Shown piece by piece: positions 15,312 to 22,376 of a stretch of DNA of 64,000 bases (its first letter is position 1; each line of letters starts with the position of its first letter). The notes under the pieces were generated by a model, which was not told the origin of the DNA, ran no database searches, and was given only the letters and a program-made list of their open reading frames with translations. The DNA is from Candidatus Omnitrophota bacterium (lineage in GTDB: Bacteria > Omnitrophota > Gorgyraeia > Zapsychrales > Fredricksoniimonadaceae). The stretch is from contig JABDCU010000007.1 of NCBI GenBank assembly GCA_013287965.1, positions 440 to 64,439 on the forward strand, read 5' to 3'. Made by a program: the position numbers and the translations under genes.

Positions 15312-15773
15312 CTAAAATTCTTTAAGACGAAACATTTTTGTCTTTTGATTGAAGGCAATTTCCTGAAAGAGATCAAAGAAGCCGTCTCTCCCCAAAAACC
15401 CTATACCTTTAGTATTCAGCTTGGTAGAAAACCCCGCATGGCACTCAAAGATCCAAGGTTCATCTTTGATAATCGCTTCCACCTTCACATCATGGAAATA
15501 CAATATCTCTTTGCCACCAATTCCATAGGTGGCCACATCCTTGCCTCCAAAAACATCCAGGCCTGCAAGCTCTCCTAAATTGGCTGGAAAGACACAGAAA
15601 TCTGCGCCAGAATCAACAACGCAATCAAAATCAAAACGCTCATAATTCTTATAAAACAAAGATATTTTTAAAATGGGAGCGTGGATTATTTTTGGGGGAG
15701 CGTTACCCTGGGCCCGTATTTGAATCTTTTTATATGGAATGGTAACGTAACTCAAAAGGCAATGGCCACCCAT
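15312..15773 (-). CDS. Retropepsin-like aspartyl protease
   Basis: The VVDSGADF motif (D-S-G-A) in a ~150-aa protein. Confidence 0.65.
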   Translation of the reverse strand: MGGHCLLSYVTIPYKKIQIRAQGNAPPKIIHAPILKISLFYKNYERFDFDCVVDSGADFCVFPANLGELAGLDVFGGKDVATYGIGGKEILYFHDVKVEAIIKDEPWIFECHAGFSTKLNTKGIGFLGRDGFFDLFQEIAFNQKTKMFRLKEF

Positions 15774-15967: not shown

Positions 15968-16033
15968 ATTTTTAATATACTCCTACGCCTTATTCTGGTC
16001 AAGGATCAATGTCCAATTTTTACCCAAAAGAAT

Positions 16034-16840
16034 TTATATAGTTATGTGAAAGCCTGAACCCACTGTCTTCTTAATCGTAATCATTCCATCTTTACGCGTA
16101 CTCAATACATACCGTCTATCAGGTCCCCCATTCCAAATAATACCTGAAGCATGCCCACCGTAATCGTGCTCCTGCGTATCATGGACTATTTCTTTGTCTG
16201 ATATCAATATAATTTGTGGGTGGCAATGATCAAAGACTTCAGCACAGTAACCAGTTGTTCTTCCATGATGGGAAGCTATGAAAATTTTTGTTTTAGCCAA
16301 ATATGCGCAAAACAATGGATTTTTGAGTAATTCAAGCCATCCCGCAGTTTCAAGGTCCCCCGTGAAGGCTACTCCCATACCATCATAAAACACAAACGAT
16401 ACCAGACTTAAATTGTTTGTGTCTGTAAAGGTTGGGTATGGATTACAAAAAGTCTGAAAATCAATATTGGGGAATAACGGAGGGTTAGCTATCGTATGAA
16501 TATAGTCACTATGTATACCAACGGCCGACGACATAGCAGTTGTTAAAGGACCACCATCAAATTTTAGGAGCATTAGTTGTTGCGCTGTTAATGTTTGGTT
16601 GCGGAAAAATCGTGTTACAGGAAATCGAGCAAGAACATTTGGAAGATCACTTACGTGGTCCTGATCAAAATTCTGAATAATGAGATGATCGATTTTAGTA
16701 CAGCCAATAGCCGATAGCCAAGATGACGGACAAAATTTTGTTTCTTGATTATCCCCGCAATCAAATAACATTATATTGCCATTATCAGCAATGAGCAGGC
16801 CACAAAAGCCATGAGCAACGTCAAAAATGCGGATTTCCAT
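16034..16840 (-). CDS. MBL-fold hydrolase (ComEC-type, degenerate first motif)
   Basis: FDCGD, NFDQDHVSD, FTGDLE and ASHHGRTTG motifs. Confidence 0.65.
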   Translation of the reverse strand: MEIRIFDVAHGFCGLLIADNGNIMLFDCGDNQETKFCPSSWLSAIGCTKIDHLIIQNFDQDHVSDLPNVLARFPVTRFFRNQTLTAQQLMLLKFDGGPLTTAMSSAVGIHSDYIHTIANPPLFPNIDFQTFCNPYPTFTDTNNLSLVSFVFYDGMGVAFTGDLETAGWLELLKNPLFCAYLAKTKIFIASHHGRTTGYCAEVFDHCHPQIILISDKEIVHDTQEHDYGGHASGIIWNGGPDRRYVLSTRKDGMITIKKTVGSGFHITI

Positions 16841-16871
16841 TTTGTCCTCTTCAAATCCCTATCGTATAATT

Positions 16872-17885
16872 TCAATTTATAAGATGTCCAAGGTGTTCTT
16901 TAATTATAAACTTTGCAGATTGCTTTCCTTTATCTTTTAATAACTGCAATGCTTTCCCCTCTACCGGATTAAAATCAGTCTTATACCGATTTACAAGAGC
17001 TAACTCTTCTTCCCCCCAACCCAACTGCAAATCTGGATGTGTACTGTCCATTTTAATCGTGCCTAAATAAGGAATTTCCTTGTTTTTATATAAAATAAAC
17101 ATCTTATTGTAGATTAAAGATTTGATCCGACGTGTTGCGGTTGCATACGATCCTTTTAAACCACCCAAAATAGATTTAGCTAAATCCTTTTCTTCCACAT
17201 AATCCGAAGAGGAAGCATCGCTAACAATAAGCGTCTCGCAACTCTGGTTAAGAATGGAAATCTTCTCATCCTTGTCTGGCATTAAGGCGTTAGCTCCTAA
17301 GCAATCATACGCACCTCCATCGGTTAGATATACATACTGATCATTTGGTAATTTTAATCTCTTAGGTAAGAAGATTAACGGATATGAAGCAGAATAGGCA
17401 ACAGCCTGACTTAAAGATAAACTGGGTAAGGCATGGCCACCTGTTTTATATGAGCCGCAAATTTCTCTGCTAAATTTAAAATTAGTTCCAGTCTTTAAAT
17501 CTGCTGCATTTAAAATTAAAGTCGGTCGATCTGGGATTTCTGCCAGCTTGGTGCCATGAAAAATCATTTTATCTAAGACCGTGGCAAGCTCATCAGCATC
17601 AATGCCTCTATTAAAAATCAATGAACAATACTGTTTTAAATTCTTTAGTGGAGATTCCAACCCATCTTTAAGAATCAAATCAGTTTTCTGACAGAAAGTA
17701 TCCCAATCTTTCGAATGAACAGCCCACAGGGCCCCAATAACTGCCCCACCAGATATTGCAGAAACTACATCAATTTTTTGGTCAATCTTTAACTCATGAA
17801 ATGCTTCAAAGACACCATAATGAAAAGCTATCGCCCTACTGCCGCCACCGGAAAGTGCTAATCCAACACCTTGTTTATTCACCAT
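16872..17885 (-). CDS. Patatin-like phospholipase
   Basis: Oxyanion GGGSRA, nucleophile elbow AISGGA, and catalytic Asp in LTDGGAYD. Confidence 0.85.
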   Translation of the reverse strand: MVNKQGVGLALSGGGSRAIAFHYGVFEAFHELKIDQKIDVVSAISGGAVIGALWAVHSKDWDTFCQKTDLILKDGLESPLKNLKQYCSLIFNRGIDADELATVLDKMIFHGTKLAEIPDRPTLILNAADLKTGTNFKFSREICGSYKTGGHALPSLSLSQAVAYSASYPLIFLPKRLKLPNDQYVYLTDGGAYDCLGANALMPDKDEKISILNQSCETLIVSDASSSDYVEEKDLAKSILGGLKGSYATATRRIKSLIYNKMFILYKNKEIPYLGTIKMDSTHPDLQLGWGEEELALVNRYKTDFNPVEGKALQLLKDKGKQSAKFIIKEHLGHLIN

Positions 17886-17894
17886 AAATCATTC

Positions 17895-18731
17895 CTAGCT
17901 TGGAATGCTTTCAGTCTTAAAATCACCTGGAATAGCTTTAGTTATAAGCGACACCCCTCCATCAACATTTGTACAATGCACATGCTTGGCAGTACGGCTA
18001 TACACGGCGAGGGCCTGATTATCTGGATGCCCATACTGATTGTCCACTCCCGCACTAATTAATACGGTATTAGGTTCTATTGAAAGTATTGACGCGGGAT
18101 GAGTACCATTCTTTGATCCGTGGTGCGCAGCAGCCATAACATCAGATTTCAAGGATTTTCCAAAGAATGAATTTATCTTTTCCCATCTTCCATTCTCAGT
18201 ATCACCTGTTATTAAATATGAGAATCCGCCCGTTCCTTTGCCGGTTAATTTAAGCACTATGCTACAGTTATTAGAAGAATCCATATCATCGATATGGGGA
18301 GAAAATAGCTCAAAGTCAAAATTAGATGAAAGACCCGTAAGTTGACGATGCGTTAAGCGATCTAATCTGACCGAAACCTGTTTTAAAGGATCTGCTGAAT
18401 TACGCCTAGCCGACTCTTGCTCCCTTATTAATTTGAATACCGCTTTCGCCTCGTCGCTATTCTTATAATACATAGGATACATTACCCAATCAGGACGATA
18501 CTTAAGCAAAACGATTGAAGTACCCACAATATCGCAATGATCGGAATCAAAACCCGTTAATATAAGACCCTTAACATTGTGCTCCTTCAATGATACGGCA
18601 AGGATTTCTTTTACATAAGCAACGGTATTGTTATCAGCGGGCGGAATACGGGAATCCACTATAATCGCTTCTTTATTGTGCCTTACGATAGTAAATGCAC
18701 CTTGGCCAACATTGACCGTAATAATGTTCAT
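17895..18731 (-). CDS. MBL-fold hydrolase (ComEC C-terminal-domain-like)
   Basis: VNVGQG, GFDSDHCD, ITGDTE and AAAHHGSKNG motifs. Its ATG overlaps the JAB stop codon (ATGA). Confidence 0.7.
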   Translation of the reverse strand: MNIITVNVGQGAFTIVRHNKEAIIVDSRIPPADNNTVAYVKEILAVSLKEHNVKGLILTGFDSDHCDIVGTSIVLLKYRPDWVMYPMYYKNSDEAKAVFKLIREQESARRNSADPLKQVSVRLDRLTHRQLTGLSSNFDFELFSPHIDDMDSSNNCSIVLKLTGKGTGGFSYLITGDTENGRWEKINSFFGKSLKSDVMAAAHHGSKNGTHPASILSIEPNTVLISAGVDNQYGHPDNQALAVYSRTAKHVHCTNVDGGVSLITKAIPGDFKTESIPS

Positions 18732-19648
18732 ACCCTATCCCTGTTAATATAAAGCTCCCGGTTAATATCTCTCTCTATGCTTAATACGGCATGCCTCGCG
18801 GATTTAAAAGCACGATCTTTATAACGCTCCAGAATTTCAGCGATAGGCAATCCTTCGTCGTTGGCAGCAGTAATTGAATATACCCACGCGCCGTCCTGAT
18901 CACTTTCTATTACCAGCGCGTCCAGGCAGGTATTGCCAATGAGGTCTAATTTCCCTTTCCAATAAAAGACATTGGTCTTCTTTGACAACAAGGGCTTAAG
19001 ATTTGGATGGAACTCTTCAAAAAACTCTTGATCCTTGGCGCGCTCTTCATTTATTTTGACTTTCACTTCTGCTCTAGCCTTGGTCTTAGCTATATCGGGA
19101 GCCGGTGTCGTAGTTTGCGGCCAAACGAGGGGCTCATCTGTAATGTGCACTTTAGAATCGGGGATTTCGTAAATGTTATCATCATTCCGACGCAGAAAAT
19201 AATGCCTAATTACATACCTTTCTTTTGAGCCATGCTTTTTCTCAATGACCAACAAGGCATAATAGAAATCTGTATTATGCATATGGTGATTCACGGTTCT
19301 TTGGTATGTCGCTCTATCGCCCGAACTTAAAGTAGTTAGCCCATTCATGTGATGGGTGTGCCAACTTCCAAGATGTTCTATGGCAGGGTACTTCTCTTCC
19401 ACCATCCTAAAGATTTTTGCTTGGTGTTCTCTGTCCGGGATAAAAATGGTTGCTGATCTGGTTACTTGCGAACCGGGCTCAATAATCCCTTGGACTTCAA
19501 TTTTATATTTATTGCCCTTCTTTTGATATGCTCCAATAATCCTACCGCCGGTTTCATCAAGATCATATCGATCACATTCATCAAAGATCACGTTGAGCGC
19601 ATTTTTAGAAATATAAACTTCAACATCTGGTTTCTTAAAATTAAACAT
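18728..19648 (-). CDS. JAB/MPN+ metalloprotease with an uncharacterised ~150-aa C-terminal extension
   Basis: ETGGRIIG plus a JAMM-like SWHTHHMNGLTTLSSGD motif. I chose the start at 19648 because of the strong GGAGGAGG 2 nt upstream; the track ORF begins at 19678. Confidence 0.8.
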   Translation of the reverse strand: MFNFKKPDVEVYISKNALNVIFDECDRYDLDETGGRIIGAYQKKGNKYKIEVQGIIEPGSQVTRSATIFIPDREHQAKIFRMVEEKYPAIEHLGSWHTHHMNGLTTLSSGDRATYQRTVNHHMHNTDFYYALLVIEKKHGSKERYVIRHYFLRRNDDNIYEIPDSKVHITDEPLVWPQTTTPAPDIAKTKARAEVKVKINEERAKDQEFFEEFHPNLKPLLSKKTNVFYWKGKLDLIGNTCLDALVIESDQDGAWVYSITAANDEGLPIAEILERYKDRAFKSARHAVLSIERDINRELYINRDRV

Positions 19649-20492
19649 CGCCTCCTCCTTTTGCCACACAGACGGCACAACTATCTTGCCGATCTAAAGT
19701 AAACCTTTGTAATTGAAAATGCTTCTTAAACGGATGTACCGGTCGATTGCCCCAAACTAAGTAATTTTCATCTATCAAATGTAAATATTTTGGTCGCTCC
19801 TTTAAGCGCCGGGCCACAGCATCTAGTACATACCTGGTATGAAACGAAGTAATGAAAGAAATGTCTACCACGAGGCCGGGAGAATCCTTTATTTCCGATA
19901 CTTCCATTCCATAAATCTTCTCCCTCTCTTCATCAGAGACCAGGTCTATTTCTTTTATGCCCTCTCTATAGGTAGTCCTCTGTAAAAAGGACTCCAAGCA
20001 CGCTAAGCAGCCCAAGCCAGGTCGGTAACTAAAGACCTCACCGCCAATGCCGCGGGTAAAAACTCTACCCACAACAAAGGGAATTTCATTCTTTACGCAA
20101 AGCTCATTGATTCTATAACGGGACGGCTCGTTATCAGTCGCCAGAACAACCACATCAGACGAACGGATTTCTTCTTCTATACCCGGGAAGTTCATTATGT
20201 CAGTATCAATCTTCTTAACGTTAACATTTGGGTTTCTGTCCTGCAAAATCTCCATCAATGCGTCAACCTTCTTGCTTCCTATAAATCGTCTTCCGCAAAC
20301 ATGCCTGATCACATTTTCAGGCCCAAGGGTATCGCGATCCAAAAGCGTAAAATTCCGTATGCCGGACATGACGAGCTGTAATGCTACGCTCCCGCCCCCT
20401 GATCCACAACCAGCCACTAGCACTTTAACCGGGGCTAAAAGCTGAATATCGAAAAGGGACTCTATTCTCTCAAATGTTTTGTCTTGTTTCAT
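19641..20492 (-). CDS. E1-like ThiF/MoeB-family adenylyltransferase
   Basis: VAGCGSGGGS Rossmann loop, LDRDTLGPENVIRH, LATDNEPSR, and two Cys pairs (CLAC, CAVC). Confidence 0.85.
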   Translation of the reverse strand: MKQDKTFERIESLFDIQLLAPVKVLVAGCGSGGGSVALQLVMSGIRNFTLLDRDTLGPENVIRHVCGRRFIGSKKVDALMEILQDRNPNVNVKKIDTDIMNFPGIEEEIRSSDVVVLATDNEPSRYRINELCVKNEIPFVVGRVFTRGIGGEVFSYRPGLGCLACLESFLQRTTYREGIKEIDLVSDEEREKIYGMEVSEIKDSPGLVVDISFITSFHTRYVLDAVARRLKERPKYLHLIDENYLVWGNRPVHPFKKHFQLQRFTLDRQDSCAVCVAKGGGDV

Positions 20493-21012
20493 GTGACCCC
20501 TCTAACCATTGACCAGTCTTCCGCCATTTTGCATACTGTTTAAGCCAACCCCTCGCTAAGTCCAACGCGTGCGTGACGTCGTAGCTTTTAGCATTCCAAG
20601 TTGTTACTGACCCAAATATAGCTAATGATCCATCGTGCCAGCGATTAGGTGTATTAGGCAAGACACCTGCTGCATAAATCCGTGGAGCAGAGTTAGGATA
20701 CCCATGAGGCAAGATGATACTGACCAGAATATTCTCTCCAGCGGCGGTCTCATGGAAATTAATCTCAAGCTCTTGTTGTTCATTAATGGTTAGCTTATAA
20801 CTCTCTTTTCTATCTTTCAGCTTGTTTCGCTCTTCCGTTATTCTATCGGGAGAAATATCTGGCAAGAGAAATGAAACAGGGACAAGACATGCCTTAGGTT
20901 CGCCATTTCTCTCAATCACGAACACTTCCCCGTCCCTAGCAACTCGATCAAGCACCTCTCCAGGGGAACTTCTCAACTCCATCATTTTTAAAATCTTAAA
21001 GTCAATTTTCAT
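20470..21012 (-). CDS. Phd/YefM-like N-terminal domain fused to a Cys-less E2 (UEV-like) domain
   Basis: The N-terminus (ELRSSPGEVLDRVARDGEVFVIERNGEPKACLVPVS) resembles Phd/YefM antitoxins. The C-terminus is paralogous to 21021..21392, with Ala where the paralogue has Cys (GSLAIFG versus GNICYLH). I chose the start at 21012 (AGGA upstream); an alternative is 21048. Confidence 0.55.
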   Translation of the reverse strand: MKIDFKILKMMELRSSPGEVLDRVARDGEVFVIERNGEPKACLVPVSFLLPDISPDRITEERNKLKDRKESYKLTINEQQELEINFHETAAGENILVSIILPHGYPNSAPRIYAAGVLPNTPNRWHDGSLAIFGSVTTWNAKSYDVTHALDLARGWLKQYAKWRKTGQWLEGSHETRQNI

Positions 21013-21020
21013 AACCGTCC

Positions 21021-21392
21021 TTAATGTTTGATCTCGGCGCCTGGCCATTTACCTTGTCGCTTCCAAACTTCATATTTATTTAGCCATTTTGCTGCCCGCG
21101 CCATCACAAAAGAAATATTATGAATGCCGGGATTCCACATGGTAGGATGAAGATAACAAATATTCCCATTTTGATACTTATGGGGCGCGGCTGTTACAAT
21201 CGGAGCATCGATAAACACCCGTGGCATTTCATTGGGATAGCCTGAGAACCTAACTGATAAAATATACATTTGATCTGCGGCCTGCAGGGCTGCCTTTAGA
21301 TAAACTTGGCCATCAACGGTTGGATGAAGCTCTAAATGATGAAAATTTCTTTGGGCTTCTAAAAATTCTCTTTTAATGCGATTAATATCCAT
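21021..21392 (-). CDS. E2-like (UBC-fold) protein with a candidate catalytic Cys
   Basis: GYPNEMPRVFI...PHKYQNGNICYLHPTMW resembles the E2 YPxxPP / HPN...GxIC core. Confidence 0.6.
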   Translation of the reverse strand: MDINRIKREFLEAQRNFHHLELHPTVDGQVYLKAALQAADQMYILSVRFSGYPNEMPRVFIDAPIVTAAPHKYQNGNICYLHPTMWNPGIHNISFVMARAAKWLNKYEVWKRQGKWPGAEIKH

Positions 21393-21404
21393 GCTACCCT
21401 CTTT

Positions 21405-21572
21405 TCAATATTCTCCGCCTAAATCTTCTTTCATTGTGATGGGTTTTTTCCCAGTAAGATCAGCGGTAGTTTGTCCCAATGCTCTAATTTCACCGTTTGG
21501 AAGGATTTGTATGGGCGTTTCTTCTTCGCTGTTCAATAAAGCCTGTAATTCTTGGATCGTTGGTTTTGCCAT
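21405..21572 (-). CDS. 55-aa protein ending ...EDLGGEY (candidate conjugated tag)
   Basis: GGAGG lies 5 nt upstream of the ATG at 21572. It is the first gene of the operon. A diglycine sits 2 residues from the C-terminus. Confidence 0.5.
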   Translation of the reverse strand: MAKPTIQELQALLNSEEETPIQILPNGEIRALGQTTADLTGKKPITMKEDLGGEY

Positions 21573-21603
21573 AATAACCTCCTGTTCATTGATACAATTG
21601 CAC

Positions 21604-21634
21604 ATACTATGACGATTGAATCGTTTTTTGTCAA
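21604..21634 (-). promoter_or_regulatory. Candidate promoter plus palindromic operator for the island operon
   Basis: On the minus strand: TTGACA (21629-21634), the 13-bp palindrome ACGATTGAATCGT (21612-21624) in the spacer, then CATAGT/TAGTAT (21604-21611). Confidence 0.3.
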
Positions 21635-21821
21635 GGATTTTTTTCTCAAACGAGCTTAGTCCAATTTAAAAGACCAAATTTTAACCCCCGCTCCGAGAAG
21701 GCTACAGTAGAAGACCTACACAAAATCTTCAAAAGTCTGCAAAGTTTGACCCTCCCCCAGTGTCAATCTAGTGTCAAACCACACACAGATCAGCACTAAA
21801 TAGCAGTAATCAAGCATACAC

Positions 21822-21848
21822 AAAAAAACCTTCTCATCGACGAGAAGG
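21822..21848 (-). terminator. Rho-independent terminator just inside the right island end
   Basis: CCTTCTC-N6-GAGAAGG stem followed by T7 on the minus strand. Confidence 0.55.
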
Positions 21849-21895
21849 TATGTAATTTAATGAATTTGAATTAGTTATGAAATGTACTTAGGACA

Positions 21896-21955
21896 CGTCC
21901 CGAACGAAGCGCGCTAGCCAACTGCGCTACTTCCCGAAAGCTGCCTAAATCTTAA
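21896..21955. repeat. Right 60-bp direct repeat (partial tRNA-Pro 5' half plus flank)
   Basis: Identical to 15196..15255. There is no tRNA 3' half next to it. Confidence 0.9.
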
Positions 21956-21969
21956 AAATAAATCAAAAG

Positions 21970-22329
21970 CTACACAGGTATCAAAGATTCAAAAGGAATG
22001 TTCAATTTATCATGCAAATTGCGGATCATTTTTAAACTTAGATTCCGTTTTCTATGAAAAATTTCAGAAACCCTGTTGCCTCCCCCAAGAATACCGGCTA
22101 TATCGGACTTTTCAAGCCCCATCTGCCCCATACGGAATTTGATGGCTTCGATTGGATCCGGAGGCAGCATAGAATAGTGTTTATTTTCATAAGCTTCAAC
22201 CAGAGTAACAAGGATGTCGAGCACGTCCCCTTGCGCAGTACCCAATTTAGCGTCCCATAAACGGTCAATTAAATCCAAAGCTTTGTCATGATCCTCTTTT
22301 GAATAGATCGGTTGGATTTTAATTCTCAT
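21970..22329 (-). CDS. HigA-like HTH antitoxin / XRE-family regulator
   Basis: C-terminal HTH (KSDIAGILGGGNRVSEIFHRKRNLSLKMIRNLHDKL) and an N-terminal helical domain typical of COG5499-type antitoxins. The start at 22329 follows a GGAG. Confidence 0.65.
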   Translation of the reverse strand: MRIKIQPIYSKEDHDKALDLIDRLWDAKLGTAQGDVLDILVTLVEAYENKHYSMLPPDPIEAIKFRMGQMGLEKSDIAGILGGGNRVSEIFHRKRNLSLKMIRNLHDKLNIPFESLIPV

Positions 22330-22376
22330 GATCATATCTCCTTTGCATCCACAAATTCCCATTTTGGGAAGTTTTT

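Follow-up and report, generated by a model that had tools for sequence, protein, structure and literature searches.

A small protein ending in LGGEY as a candidate peptide modifier in a split relative of the 6A-MBL ubiquitination-like operon

The stretch of DNA analysed here, called the window throughout, comprises 64,000 nucleotides of contig JABDCU010000007.1 from a Candidatus Omnitrophota genome (assembly GCA_013287965.1) and carries on its minus strand a gene for a 55-residue protein that ends in LGGEY and heads an operon for E2-like, E1-like, JAB-peptidase and MBL-fold proteins. Judged by sequence conservation and gene context, we lean towards reading this small protein as a dedicated peptide modifier of the E1/E2/JAB set, with a Cys-less E2-like protein bearing a Phd/YefM domain (Phd-E2) as its UEV-like partner, and with the MBL-fold protein and a variable seventh gene product as effectors or regulated targets. 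The general kind to which the operon belongs, i.e., bacterial ubiquitination-like defence pathways, is already known; its split architecture with a Phd-UEV subunit, the LGGEY protein without a beta-grasp fold, and the phage-encoded look-alikes of that protein were not found in the searchable literature and libraries queried.

Conservation of the small protein

The small open reading frame (Table 1) translates to MAKPTIQELQALLNSEEETPIQILPNGEIRALGQTTADLTGKKPITMKEDLGGEY. It had been proposed in a reading made from the DNA alone (hereafter the sequence-only reading), whose translation was exact and which had left the strand, here minus, unstated. Among 5.8 billion protein clusters, 522 homologues were found at E ≤ 0.1, the best 120 of which were 67–100% identical, and a profile search of 1.84 billion representatives clustered at 50% identity returned 527 matches at E ≤ 0.001; homologues across phyla shared 60–90% identity. 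Against 13 distant loci, non-synonymous divergence (pN) was 0.03–0.27 with synonymous divergence (pS) saturated at 0.72 or more. The gene is real and under strong purifying selection.

An alignment of 51 sequences contained two invariant blocks, I23-L-P-N-G-E-(I)-R30 and K43-P-x-T-x-x-E-x-L-G-G-E-Y55, with a variable and indel-prone linker (residues 32–42) between them. Within the same loci the small protein was conserved at least as strongly as E1 and more strongly than E2, JAB and the first MBL-fold protein (MBL1). At locus L030, for example, identities to the window proteins were 67% for the small protein, 62% for E1, 40% each for E2 and JAB, and 48% for MBL1, and at the nearest genome locus, in an Omnitrophota metagenome-assembled genome (MAG), they were 88% for the small protein and 85% for E1. 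Pfam, NCBIfam, PHROGs and PADLOC hold no model for the small protein and its RefSeq annotation is “hypothetical protein”; hence, neither it nor the six-gene system is picked up by current pipelines. The full-text literature searched, which did not cover the van den Berg et al. 2024 paper on 6A-MBL, gave no account of it.

Synteny and distribution of the operon

Genomes were scanned with one genome per species over 185,579 species, which yielded 59 loci. The gene order small gene–E2–Phd-E2–E1–JAB–MBL1 was present in about 55 of these, the exceptions being truncated contigs or decayed copies, so that the link to E2, E1 and JAB genes, on which the sequence-only reading had depended, was borne out well beyond the window. 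The loci span more than 12 phyla, with carriers in the Omnitrophota, Acidobacteriota, Alpha- and Gammaproteobacteria, Myxococcota, Planctomycetota, Elusimicrobiota, Gemmatimonadota, Binatia, Eremiobacterota and Thermodesulfobacteriota as well as in one archaeon (Methanosarcinales). The same gene set lies beside an IS30 element on plasmid pMspAR10a of Mesorhizobium sp. AR10, at 116452–120167 of NZ_CP080523.1; this strain is one of the cultured carriers together with Bradyrhizobium genosp. A BDV5028 and Bradyrhizobium sp. GM0.4. The archaeal MAG (L026) carries a complete operon, which suggests either inter-domain transfer or a binning error, and the copy in an Eremiobacterota MAG (L042), in which the E2, E1 and MBL genes are fragmented, appears to be decaying.

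Downstream of MBL1 the gene content varies. A patatin gene directly follows MBL1 in about 15 of the 48 loci with a downstream gene and occurs somewhere in the locus in about 30 of 59; elsewhere, this seventh slot is taken by either of two unknown families (11 and 7 loci) or, in the remaining loci, by a DUF2207-like membrane protein, another MBL or a STAND-like ATPase. Such a combination of sporadic distribution, mobility and a swappable effector slot is typical of defence islands.

Operon enzymes

The candidate catalytic residue of E2, Cys78, sits in an invariant ICYLHP..WNPG.H motif (56 homologues). The E2 C-terminus (...WPGa...H) is likewise invariant, with His as the final residue in 55 of 57 homologues, and may supply an active-site histidine, by analogy with the active-site histidine that Iyer et al. 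described for another bacterial E2 class (PMC1779556). The PADLOC E2 models also match residues 99–190 of the 192-residue Phd-E2 protein, which has no conserved Cys at the E2 catalytic position. E1 has a GCGSGG nucleotide loop and a CxxC...CxxC arrangement, both conserved in homologues, and its invariant non-zinc cysteines are Cys29, Cys66 (in RHvCG) and Cys132. The JAB protein has an intact EHLGxWHTHH...LSxGD motif and an uncharacterised C-terminal half; its true start may be an ATG near 19648. The operon enzymes look active, with Cys78 of E2, the JAMM motif, the nucleotide loop of E1 and the zinc cysteines all invariant. MBL1 is the conserved sixth gene. The C-termini of MBL1, Phd-E2, E1 and JAB all vary and none of them resembles the end of an E1 substrate; across about 50 MBL1 homologues, the last residue was A, R, K, N, S, Q, D or another, and the tails differed in length.

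Predicted fold

The AlphaFold2 model of the small protein, computed from the 51-sequence alignment, consists of a helix (residues 6–17), a beta-hairpin (21–23/29–31) and coil for the remainder, with a mean pLDDT (predicted local distance difference test) of 71.5. The hairpin carries the invariant ILPNGEIR, and the C-terminal half is predicted to be unstructured. Foldseek against the PDB gave no match to this model at E ≤ 0.001, a sequence search of the PDB returned nothing, and hhalign against an alignment of Ub, NEDD8, Rub1, ISG15 and SUMO gave a probability of 0.1%. On these predictions the small protein is not a detectable beta-grasp, in agreement with the earlier expectation that 55 residues are too few for that domain. 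A truncated beta-grasp had been entertained because the succession of helix, P, hairpin and GG matches ubiquitin residues 22–76 by eye; it was dropped for want of support from hhalign, Foldseek or the PDB search. The window protein had no Pfam match at all, PF02604 (Phd/YefM) included, and one phage homologue had an insignificant match to Multi_ubiq (E = 0.16).

The C-terminal motif and the activated residue

The diglycine that the sequence-only reading placed two residues from the C-terminus is found at positions 52–53. Its context was examined in 301 non-redundant members counted with [LIVM]GGEY: 81 (27%) stop exactly at Y, 220 run on past it for a variable stretch (median 6 residues, 153 at most), and none terminates at GG. 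The first residue after Y is G, A or S in 79%, and, since Pro never occurs there and Arg is rare, this preference is not due to GC bias alone. In the 51-sequence alignment E54 and Y55 are as invariant as the two glycines, and LGGEY is present in nearly all of the approximately 300 non-redundant members. Because E54-Y55 is invariant and variable tails begin only after Y, the conserved unit is LGGEY and the disposable part lies beyond it. The earlier proposal thus needs dividing: a C-terminal GG is conserved across the family, as it had supposed, but the E-Y that it took for the disposable tail of a Ubl (ubiquitin-like protein) precursor is itself fixed, and any optional extension follows Y.

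The second Gly is retained in at least 98% of the operon-type family; among members of an orphan phage family with the same tail (see “Phage-encoded homologues”), its place is taken by D, S, N, E, K or A in 24%. The constraint on this residue is therefore tied to the enzyme-linked family and, as far as sequence comparison goes, favours chemistry at this Gly. The JAB gene is kept in every locus, whether or not the small protein has a tail beyond Y. Odd variants of the small protein (P0026, P0194, P0255, P0256 and P0151) include a direct fusion to E2 (P0151, GGEY-VP-MDLD...), one that ends in a duplicated LGGEYLGGEY, and several that run past LGGEY into Cys-rich, zinc-ribbon-like extensions. Since tail extensions and the fusion to E2 are tolerated, the small protein, if E1 acts on it, must obtain its reactive end by proteolysis.

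Which group would then be activated can be narrowed to a few candidates. We give about an even chance to the carboxylate of Gly53, after obligatory loss of E54-Y55 plus any tail. A cut after Gly53 is plausible because it fits the behaviour of Cap3 and BilC (PMC10557695) and the rule that Cap2 uses Gly or Ala only (PMC10097602); E-Y would in that case form an invariant P1'-P2' pair, and all members would be pro-forms. The claim that JAB trims the tail to expose GG is accordingly tenable in so far as relatives of the E1 need a terminal Gly or Ala (PMC10097602), but the cut would have to be obligatory with an invariant P1'-P2', unlike in known Ubls. Activation at Tyr55, with JAB trimming only the residues beyond it, is a possible but weaker candidate, disfavoured because Ser, Val, Arg and Trp are not accepted by Cap2 in the final position (PMC10097602). 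Some other group, such as the side chain of Glu54 by analogy with Pup, would be an improbable choice.

Phage-encoded homologues

Homologues of the small protein, 34–58% identical, are encoded on 11 IMG/VR contigs, and no E2, E1, JAB or MBL was detected within 9 kb of them by tblastn and by profile hidden Markov models built from more than 50 operon homologues. On five of the 11 contigs the homologue is part of the head module, set among or next to the genes for portal, scaffold and major capsid proteins (Table 1), and a Mu-F-like gene is also among these neighbours (L060–L068); in L060 and L068, the large terminase gene follows about 3 kb downstream of the homologue. Nine viral-contig copies keep LGGEY, and each of them continues into a tail that begins with G or A; a tail after LGGEY is likewise present in 32 of 32 viral-like or ambiguous database members. 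No homologue was found in 50,697 GenBank phage records.

A second group was reached through a gene on contig L069 (7829–8062, plus strand), in which a Phd/YefM-like domain is fused to the hairpin and tail; this Phd-like domain shares 43% identity with the N-terminal domain of Phd-E2. A search with this fusion returned 154 phage proteins of about 72–78 residues (P0272–P0391; loci L072–L075), whose tail reads ...KPLTFRE.LG.EY and among which the second Gly gives way to LGDEY, LGSEY, LGNEY and others at the frequency stated above. Their genes lie in early or accessory regions of phages, amid helix-turn-helix regulators, RusA, DNA methyltransferases, GcrA and GapR, and no toxin gene stood beside them in the neighbourhoods examined. 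In the AlphaFold model of the fusion, the Phd domain is confident and the tail disordered. The fusion links the Phd domain and the tail functionally. Both phage families are probably mimics that engage the host machinery; the head-module site of the orphan copies could also allow a morphogenetic role, the host copy then being a bait.

Proposed mechanism and its implications

In the mechanism that we propose for the small protein as a modifier, in a ubiquitin-like conjugation system of a mobile, anti-phage-type island, its helix and hairpin would dock it on the machinery, possibly on the Phd-UEV subunit, and the disordered tail K43-P-x-T-x-x-E-x-LGGEY would thread into the active sites. E1 would adenylate a carboxylate at the tail end, and the acyl group would pass to Cys78 of E2 and from there to an amine on a target, with the Cys-less E2 acting like a UEV protein to position an acceptor such as the invariant Lys43. 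JAB would make the reactive end, reverse conjugation, or both. During infection, the MBL and patatin effectors would be controlled or targeted through conjugation. The simplest reading of the phage orphan copies and Phd-tail fusions in this scheme would be that they are mimics engaging the same machinery.

To our knowledge, the E1-E2 cascades described so far attach either a beta-grasp Ubl or, in CBASS (anti-phage signalling based on cyclic oligonucleotides), a whole enzyme. More tentatively, we raise the possibility that the 55-residue protein is a second kind of E1/E2-conjugated modifier, short, half-disordered and Pup-like, without a beta-grasp, whose LGGEY is activated unconventionally (by removal of an E-Y “lock”, or through a C-terminal Tyr or the Glu side chain) and which is countered or exploited by two families of phage mimics, i.e., the orphan head-module copies and the Phd-tail fusions, in which the reactive Gly is often replaced. 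If true, this would be the first molecular mimicry aimed at a bacterial ubiquitin-like pathway. A role as a tag, if true, would by itself widen the definition of a ubiquitin-like modifier to a small, largely disordered protein without a beta-grasp, and would offer a very small and tractable model for how E1, E2 and JAB read a tail; the invariant E-Y after GG raises the testable question of which residue is activated. The phage orphans and Phd-tail fusions suggest an arms race around the pathway and, if this is confirmed, would be ready-made inhibitors or probes.

Evidence against the modifier and alternative explanations

Several observations weigh against the small protein being a conjugated modifier. 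The covalent chemistry required (adenylation, thioester formation and conjugation) is deduced from homology and gene context, and E1 has no conserved Cys past its first CxxC, which is the site of the catalytic Cys in ThiF and Cap2. The C-terminus is atypical for an E1 substrate in that E54-Y55 is invariant and no member ends in GG. We know of no precedent for an invariant P1'-P2' pair in Ubl precursors, which speaks against simple exposure of GG. The phage homologues retain the whole tail motif without linked E1, E2 or JAB, and the motif may thus serve some purpose other than conjugation. The nearest characterised E1, Cap2, rejects terminal Ser, Val, Arg and Trp (PMC10097602), and the CBASS, Pycsar and MBL pathways are described as conjugating “their respective signaling enzymes” (PMC11601596). 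On that published view MBL1 itself would be the conjugated protein, and the small protein a regulator, adaptor or acceptor (e.g., via its invariant Lys43 or Lys3). This appears unlikely to us, although E1, JAB and MBL1 are distant relatives of 6A-MBL components, MBL1 belongs to the invariant six-gene core, the MBL1 of one subclade ends in ...RVA with an Ala that Cap2 would accept (PMC10097602), and invariant lysines are present in the small protein. In CBASS, cyclases linked to Cap2 end in a conserved Gly or Ala (PMC10097602), whereas the last residue and the tail length of MBL1 vary across about 50 homologues, for which reason MBL1 was demoted as a substrate of the CD-NTase kind; moreover, the disordered LGGEY tail as the most conserved feature of the locus, the extensions after LGGEY, and the fusions of the small protein to E2 would go unexplained.

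The phage copies bring in a different possibility, in which the small protein imitates a phage protein or acts as a bait for it: a phage morphogenesis factor, for instance a prohead protease, would cut it near GGE|Y or capture it, and this event would license E1/E2 and free the MBL and patatin effectors. The sequence-only reading had left room for a decoy or substrate peptide besides a minimal tag, and the decoy gains some support from the phage-encoded homologues, of which five of 11 lie inside a head module. The T4 prohead-core proteins gp67 and gp68 are cut by the T4 prohead protease, T4-like proteases cut after Glu (L/I-X-E, S/A-X-E, A-X-E) (PMC9026906, PMC10052503), and prohead-protease cleavage is a known trigger of CBASS (PMC12991175); a bait would also account for the invariant E-Y and for the free choice of residues after Y. 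We nevertheless regard it as rather unlikely: G-G-E falls outside the published S/A-X-E and L/I-X-E motifs, none of the annotated phage modules showed a prohead protease, Glu at the C-terminus would be unusual for a substrate of E1, the lack of homologues among 50,697 GenBank phage genomes leaves a broadly useful bait not evident, and the phage copies could equally be anti-defence mimics. The small protein could instead be an antitoxin-like inhibitor that is never conjugated and whose disordered tail plugs JAB, E1 or MBL non-covalently, as Phd/YefM tails do. In its architecture, a small fold followed by a conserved but disordered tail, it is reminiscent of type II antitoxins; 154 phage proteins join that tail to a genuine Phd/YefM-like domain, the operon's Cys-less E2 has a Phd domain, and many tails end in Ala or Ala-Ala, which recall C-terminal degradation signals. 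An inhibitor of this sort seems quite improbable, however, given that it would not need the complete and intact set of E1, E2(Cys) and JAB co-inherited in every locus, that the phage Phd-tail genes have no toxin gene beside them, and that the invariance of GG is specific to the enzyme-linked family, where chemistry explains it better. ThiF-like enzymes are also known to adenylate short ribosomal peptides (MccB on MccA, PaaA on PaaP), and with this precedent and its invariant C-terminal core the small protein might be the precursor of a ribosomally synthesised and post-translationally modified peptide (RiPP), adenylated by the E1-like enzyme to give a modified peptide or small molecule, with JAB as the leader peptidase. 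We consider a RiPP-like precursor very improbable, as the loci conserve neither an exporter nor an immunity gene, known RiPP routes make no use of a thioester-competent E2 or a UEV-like partner, all 55 residues rather than a core alone are conserved, and phage homologues occur without the enzymes.

Relation to known systems

Pup is a largely disordered tag of about 60 residues with a C-terminal GG-Q/E; the glutamine-synthetase-like enzymes PafA and Dop ligate it via its Glu side chain. The small protein is of similar size and its C-terminal half is predicted to be coil, but its end is GG-E-Y with an invariant Tyr, there is no detectable sequence similarity between the two, and the proteins of the island include no PafA/Dop-type family (Pfam and NCBIfam scans). 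Like a beta-grasp Ubl, it is encoded together with a cognate E1, E2 and peptidase (about 55 of 59 loci and one plasmid), but AlphaFold2, Foldseek and hhalign find no beta-grasp fold in it. It also differs from a type II antitoxin of the Phd/YefM kind in that the Phd domain is carried by the Cys-less E2 and the phage fusions and not by the 55-residue protein.

As a whole, the operon most resembles 6A-MBL, which corresponds to row 6a of Iyer, Burroughs and Aravind 2006, a triple fusion of E2, E1 and JAB next to an MBL with no Ubl or small protein listed (PMC1779556), and which is counted among anti-phage and jumbo-phage defence systems (10.1101/2025.09.30.679545; PMC13276650). Common to both are a Cap2-like E2/E1 and a Cap3-like JAB next to an MBL-fold protein, and a sporadic, mobile distribution. 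In contrast to 6A-MBL, E2, E1 and JAB are three separate genes in the window and in all related loci, and the window operon adds the Cys-less E2 with its Phd/YefM domain as well as a dedicated 55-residue LGGEY protein, row 6a being described without one (PMC1779556). The scores of the NCBIfam models for 6A-MBL (NF058523 and NF058524) point the same way: E1 and JAB reached 54 and 44 bits against a cutoff of 320 for 6A-MBL_cap2_3, MBL1 reached 38.7 bits against a cutoff of 220 for 6A-MBL_enzyme, and the match to Cap3 was also below its cutoff. Pfam E2-CBASS was recorded on the E2 of locus L076. By its sequences, the present operon is best described as a split, elaborated relative of 6A-MBL and not as a member.

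In type II CBASS, the protein that Cap2 conjugates has no beta-grasp and is attached via a Gly or Ala at its C-terminus, the residue after which Cap3 cuts (PMC10097602). Cap2 and Cap3 are the closest relatives of the window E2, E1 and JAB by hidden Markov model, and patatin effectors occur in both settings. The window locus differs in being without nucleotide signalling, no CD-NTase or cyclase having been found in it by Pfam and PADLOC scans, in its unfused E1 and E2, and in its candidate substrate, which is a half-disordered peptide of 55 residues ending in LGGEY instead of an enzyme ending in Gly or Ala. In the Bil (BilABCD) and Bub pathways, JAB exposes the reactive C-terminus of the precursor and removes conjugates (PMC10557695, PMC11601596). 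These share separate genes for Ubl, E2, E1 and peptidase with the window, and inactive E2-like partners occur in the 6e/Bil class (PMC1779556); the window enzymes, however, are of the CBASS/Atg7-like and not of the canonical clade.

Transcription unit and genomic setting

The coordinates of the operon and its signals are given in Table 1. The GGAGG ribosome-binding site of the sequence-only reading is present, and its placement of the small gene at the head of the operon is reasonable: the genes downstream overlap or are separated by gaps of at most 31 nucleotides as far as 16034, and a terminator-like hairpin lies between the operon and the upstream HigA-like gene, so that the small gene plausibly opens a new transcription unit. 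The promoter and terminator are consensus matches, and the number of promoter-like sites in the region was not above the shuffled expectation. A longer in-frame version of 66 residues, starting from an ATG at 21605, is possible but unlikely, because the promoter-like site puts the likely transcript start at or downstream of that ATG and because homologues begin at M-x-x-KPT.

Table 1 Features of the operon in the window and positions of head-module homologues on phage contigs (window coordinates except for the last five rows, which refer to the contig named)
Feature	Coordinates	Strand	Basis or remark
Small protein (candidate tag), 55 aa	21405..21572	minus	ATG 21572-21570, TGA 21407-21405
E2 (UBC-like), 123 aa	21021..21392	minus	PADLOC CBASS-type E2 models, E=1e-12
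Phd-E2: Phd/YefM-like N-terminal domain and Cys-less E2-like (UEV-like) domain, 192 aa	20470..21048	minus	Pfam PF02604, E=4e-7
E1, ThiF-family adenylyltransferase, 283 aa	19641..20492	minus	Pfam ThiF, E=2e-30; PADLOC Cap2-type E1-E2, E=2e-31
JAB/JAMM metallopeptidase, 316 aa	18728..19678	minus	PADLOC JAB (Cap3-type), E=7e-13; Pfam Prok-JAB, E=5e-4
MBL1, MBL-fold (ComEC/Rec2-like), 278 aa	17895..18731	minus	NCBIfam ComEC_Rec2, E=3e-25; PADLOC matches
Patatin-like phospholipase, 337 aa	16872..17885	minus	Pfam Patatin, E=2e-16; variable seventh “effector” slot
Second MBL-fold protein, 268 aa	16034..16840	minus	PADLOC PDC-M48B, E=1e-50; accessory gene
GGAGG ribosome-binding site	21578..21582	minus	5 nucleotides ahead of the ATG; read straight from the sequence
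Promoter-like site, TTGACA-17-CATAGT	21606..21634	minus	10 of 12 consensus positions; consensus match alone
Terminator-like hairpin and T-run	21828..21849	minus	3' of the upstream HigA-like gene; consensus match alone
Orphan homologue, contig L065	9001-9156		just after portal gene, before scaffold and capsid genes
Orphan homologue, contig L063	9001-9177		just after portal gene, before scaffold and capsid genes
Orphan homologue, contig L066	9001-9156		just after portal gene, before scaffold and capsid genes
Orphan homologue, contig L067	3051-3206		just after putative portal gene, before scaffold and capsid genes
Orphan homologue, contig L064	2401-2547		between capsid gene and neck genes

The island that holds the operon (16000–22000) has a GC content of 38–45% compared with 46–52% in its flanks, and is inserted between housekeeping genes. 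Its neighbours are genes for acylphosphatase, LigA and a XerC/D-type recombinase at one end and for FabZ, RibE and RibD at the opposite end. The gene immediately upstream of the small gene (21970–22362, minus strand) encodes a 130-residue protein that matches the first 118 of 402 positions of PADLOC PD-Lambda-2_B (E = 3.5e-36) and no Pfam family; it is read as a putative HigA/XRE-like regulator and is not a conserved neighbour of the operon elsewhere. The distal edge of the island holds an open reading frame of 153 residues (15312–15773, minus strand) with a retropepsin-like DSGAD motif, which matched no Pfam family and gave weak matches to PADLOC PDC-M08B (E about 0.005).

The second MBL gene is found in only a few related loci. 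Together with the patatin gene (16034–17885 in the window), it co-occurs in L017, L021 and L028 and is inverted and upstream in L057; the pair may be a separate candidate defence module (PDC-M48) docked on the core. In L076 (5205–8636) the core is followed by an unknown protein of about 375 residues, by a fusion of about 740 residues with Prok-E2_A, ThiF and Prok-JAB domains, which is of the canonical 6A type, and then by an MBL or patatin. The same arrangement recurs at about 13–16 kb in L023, L029, L041, L055 and L056, and in these loci, as in L076, two ubiquitination-like modules stand in tandem.

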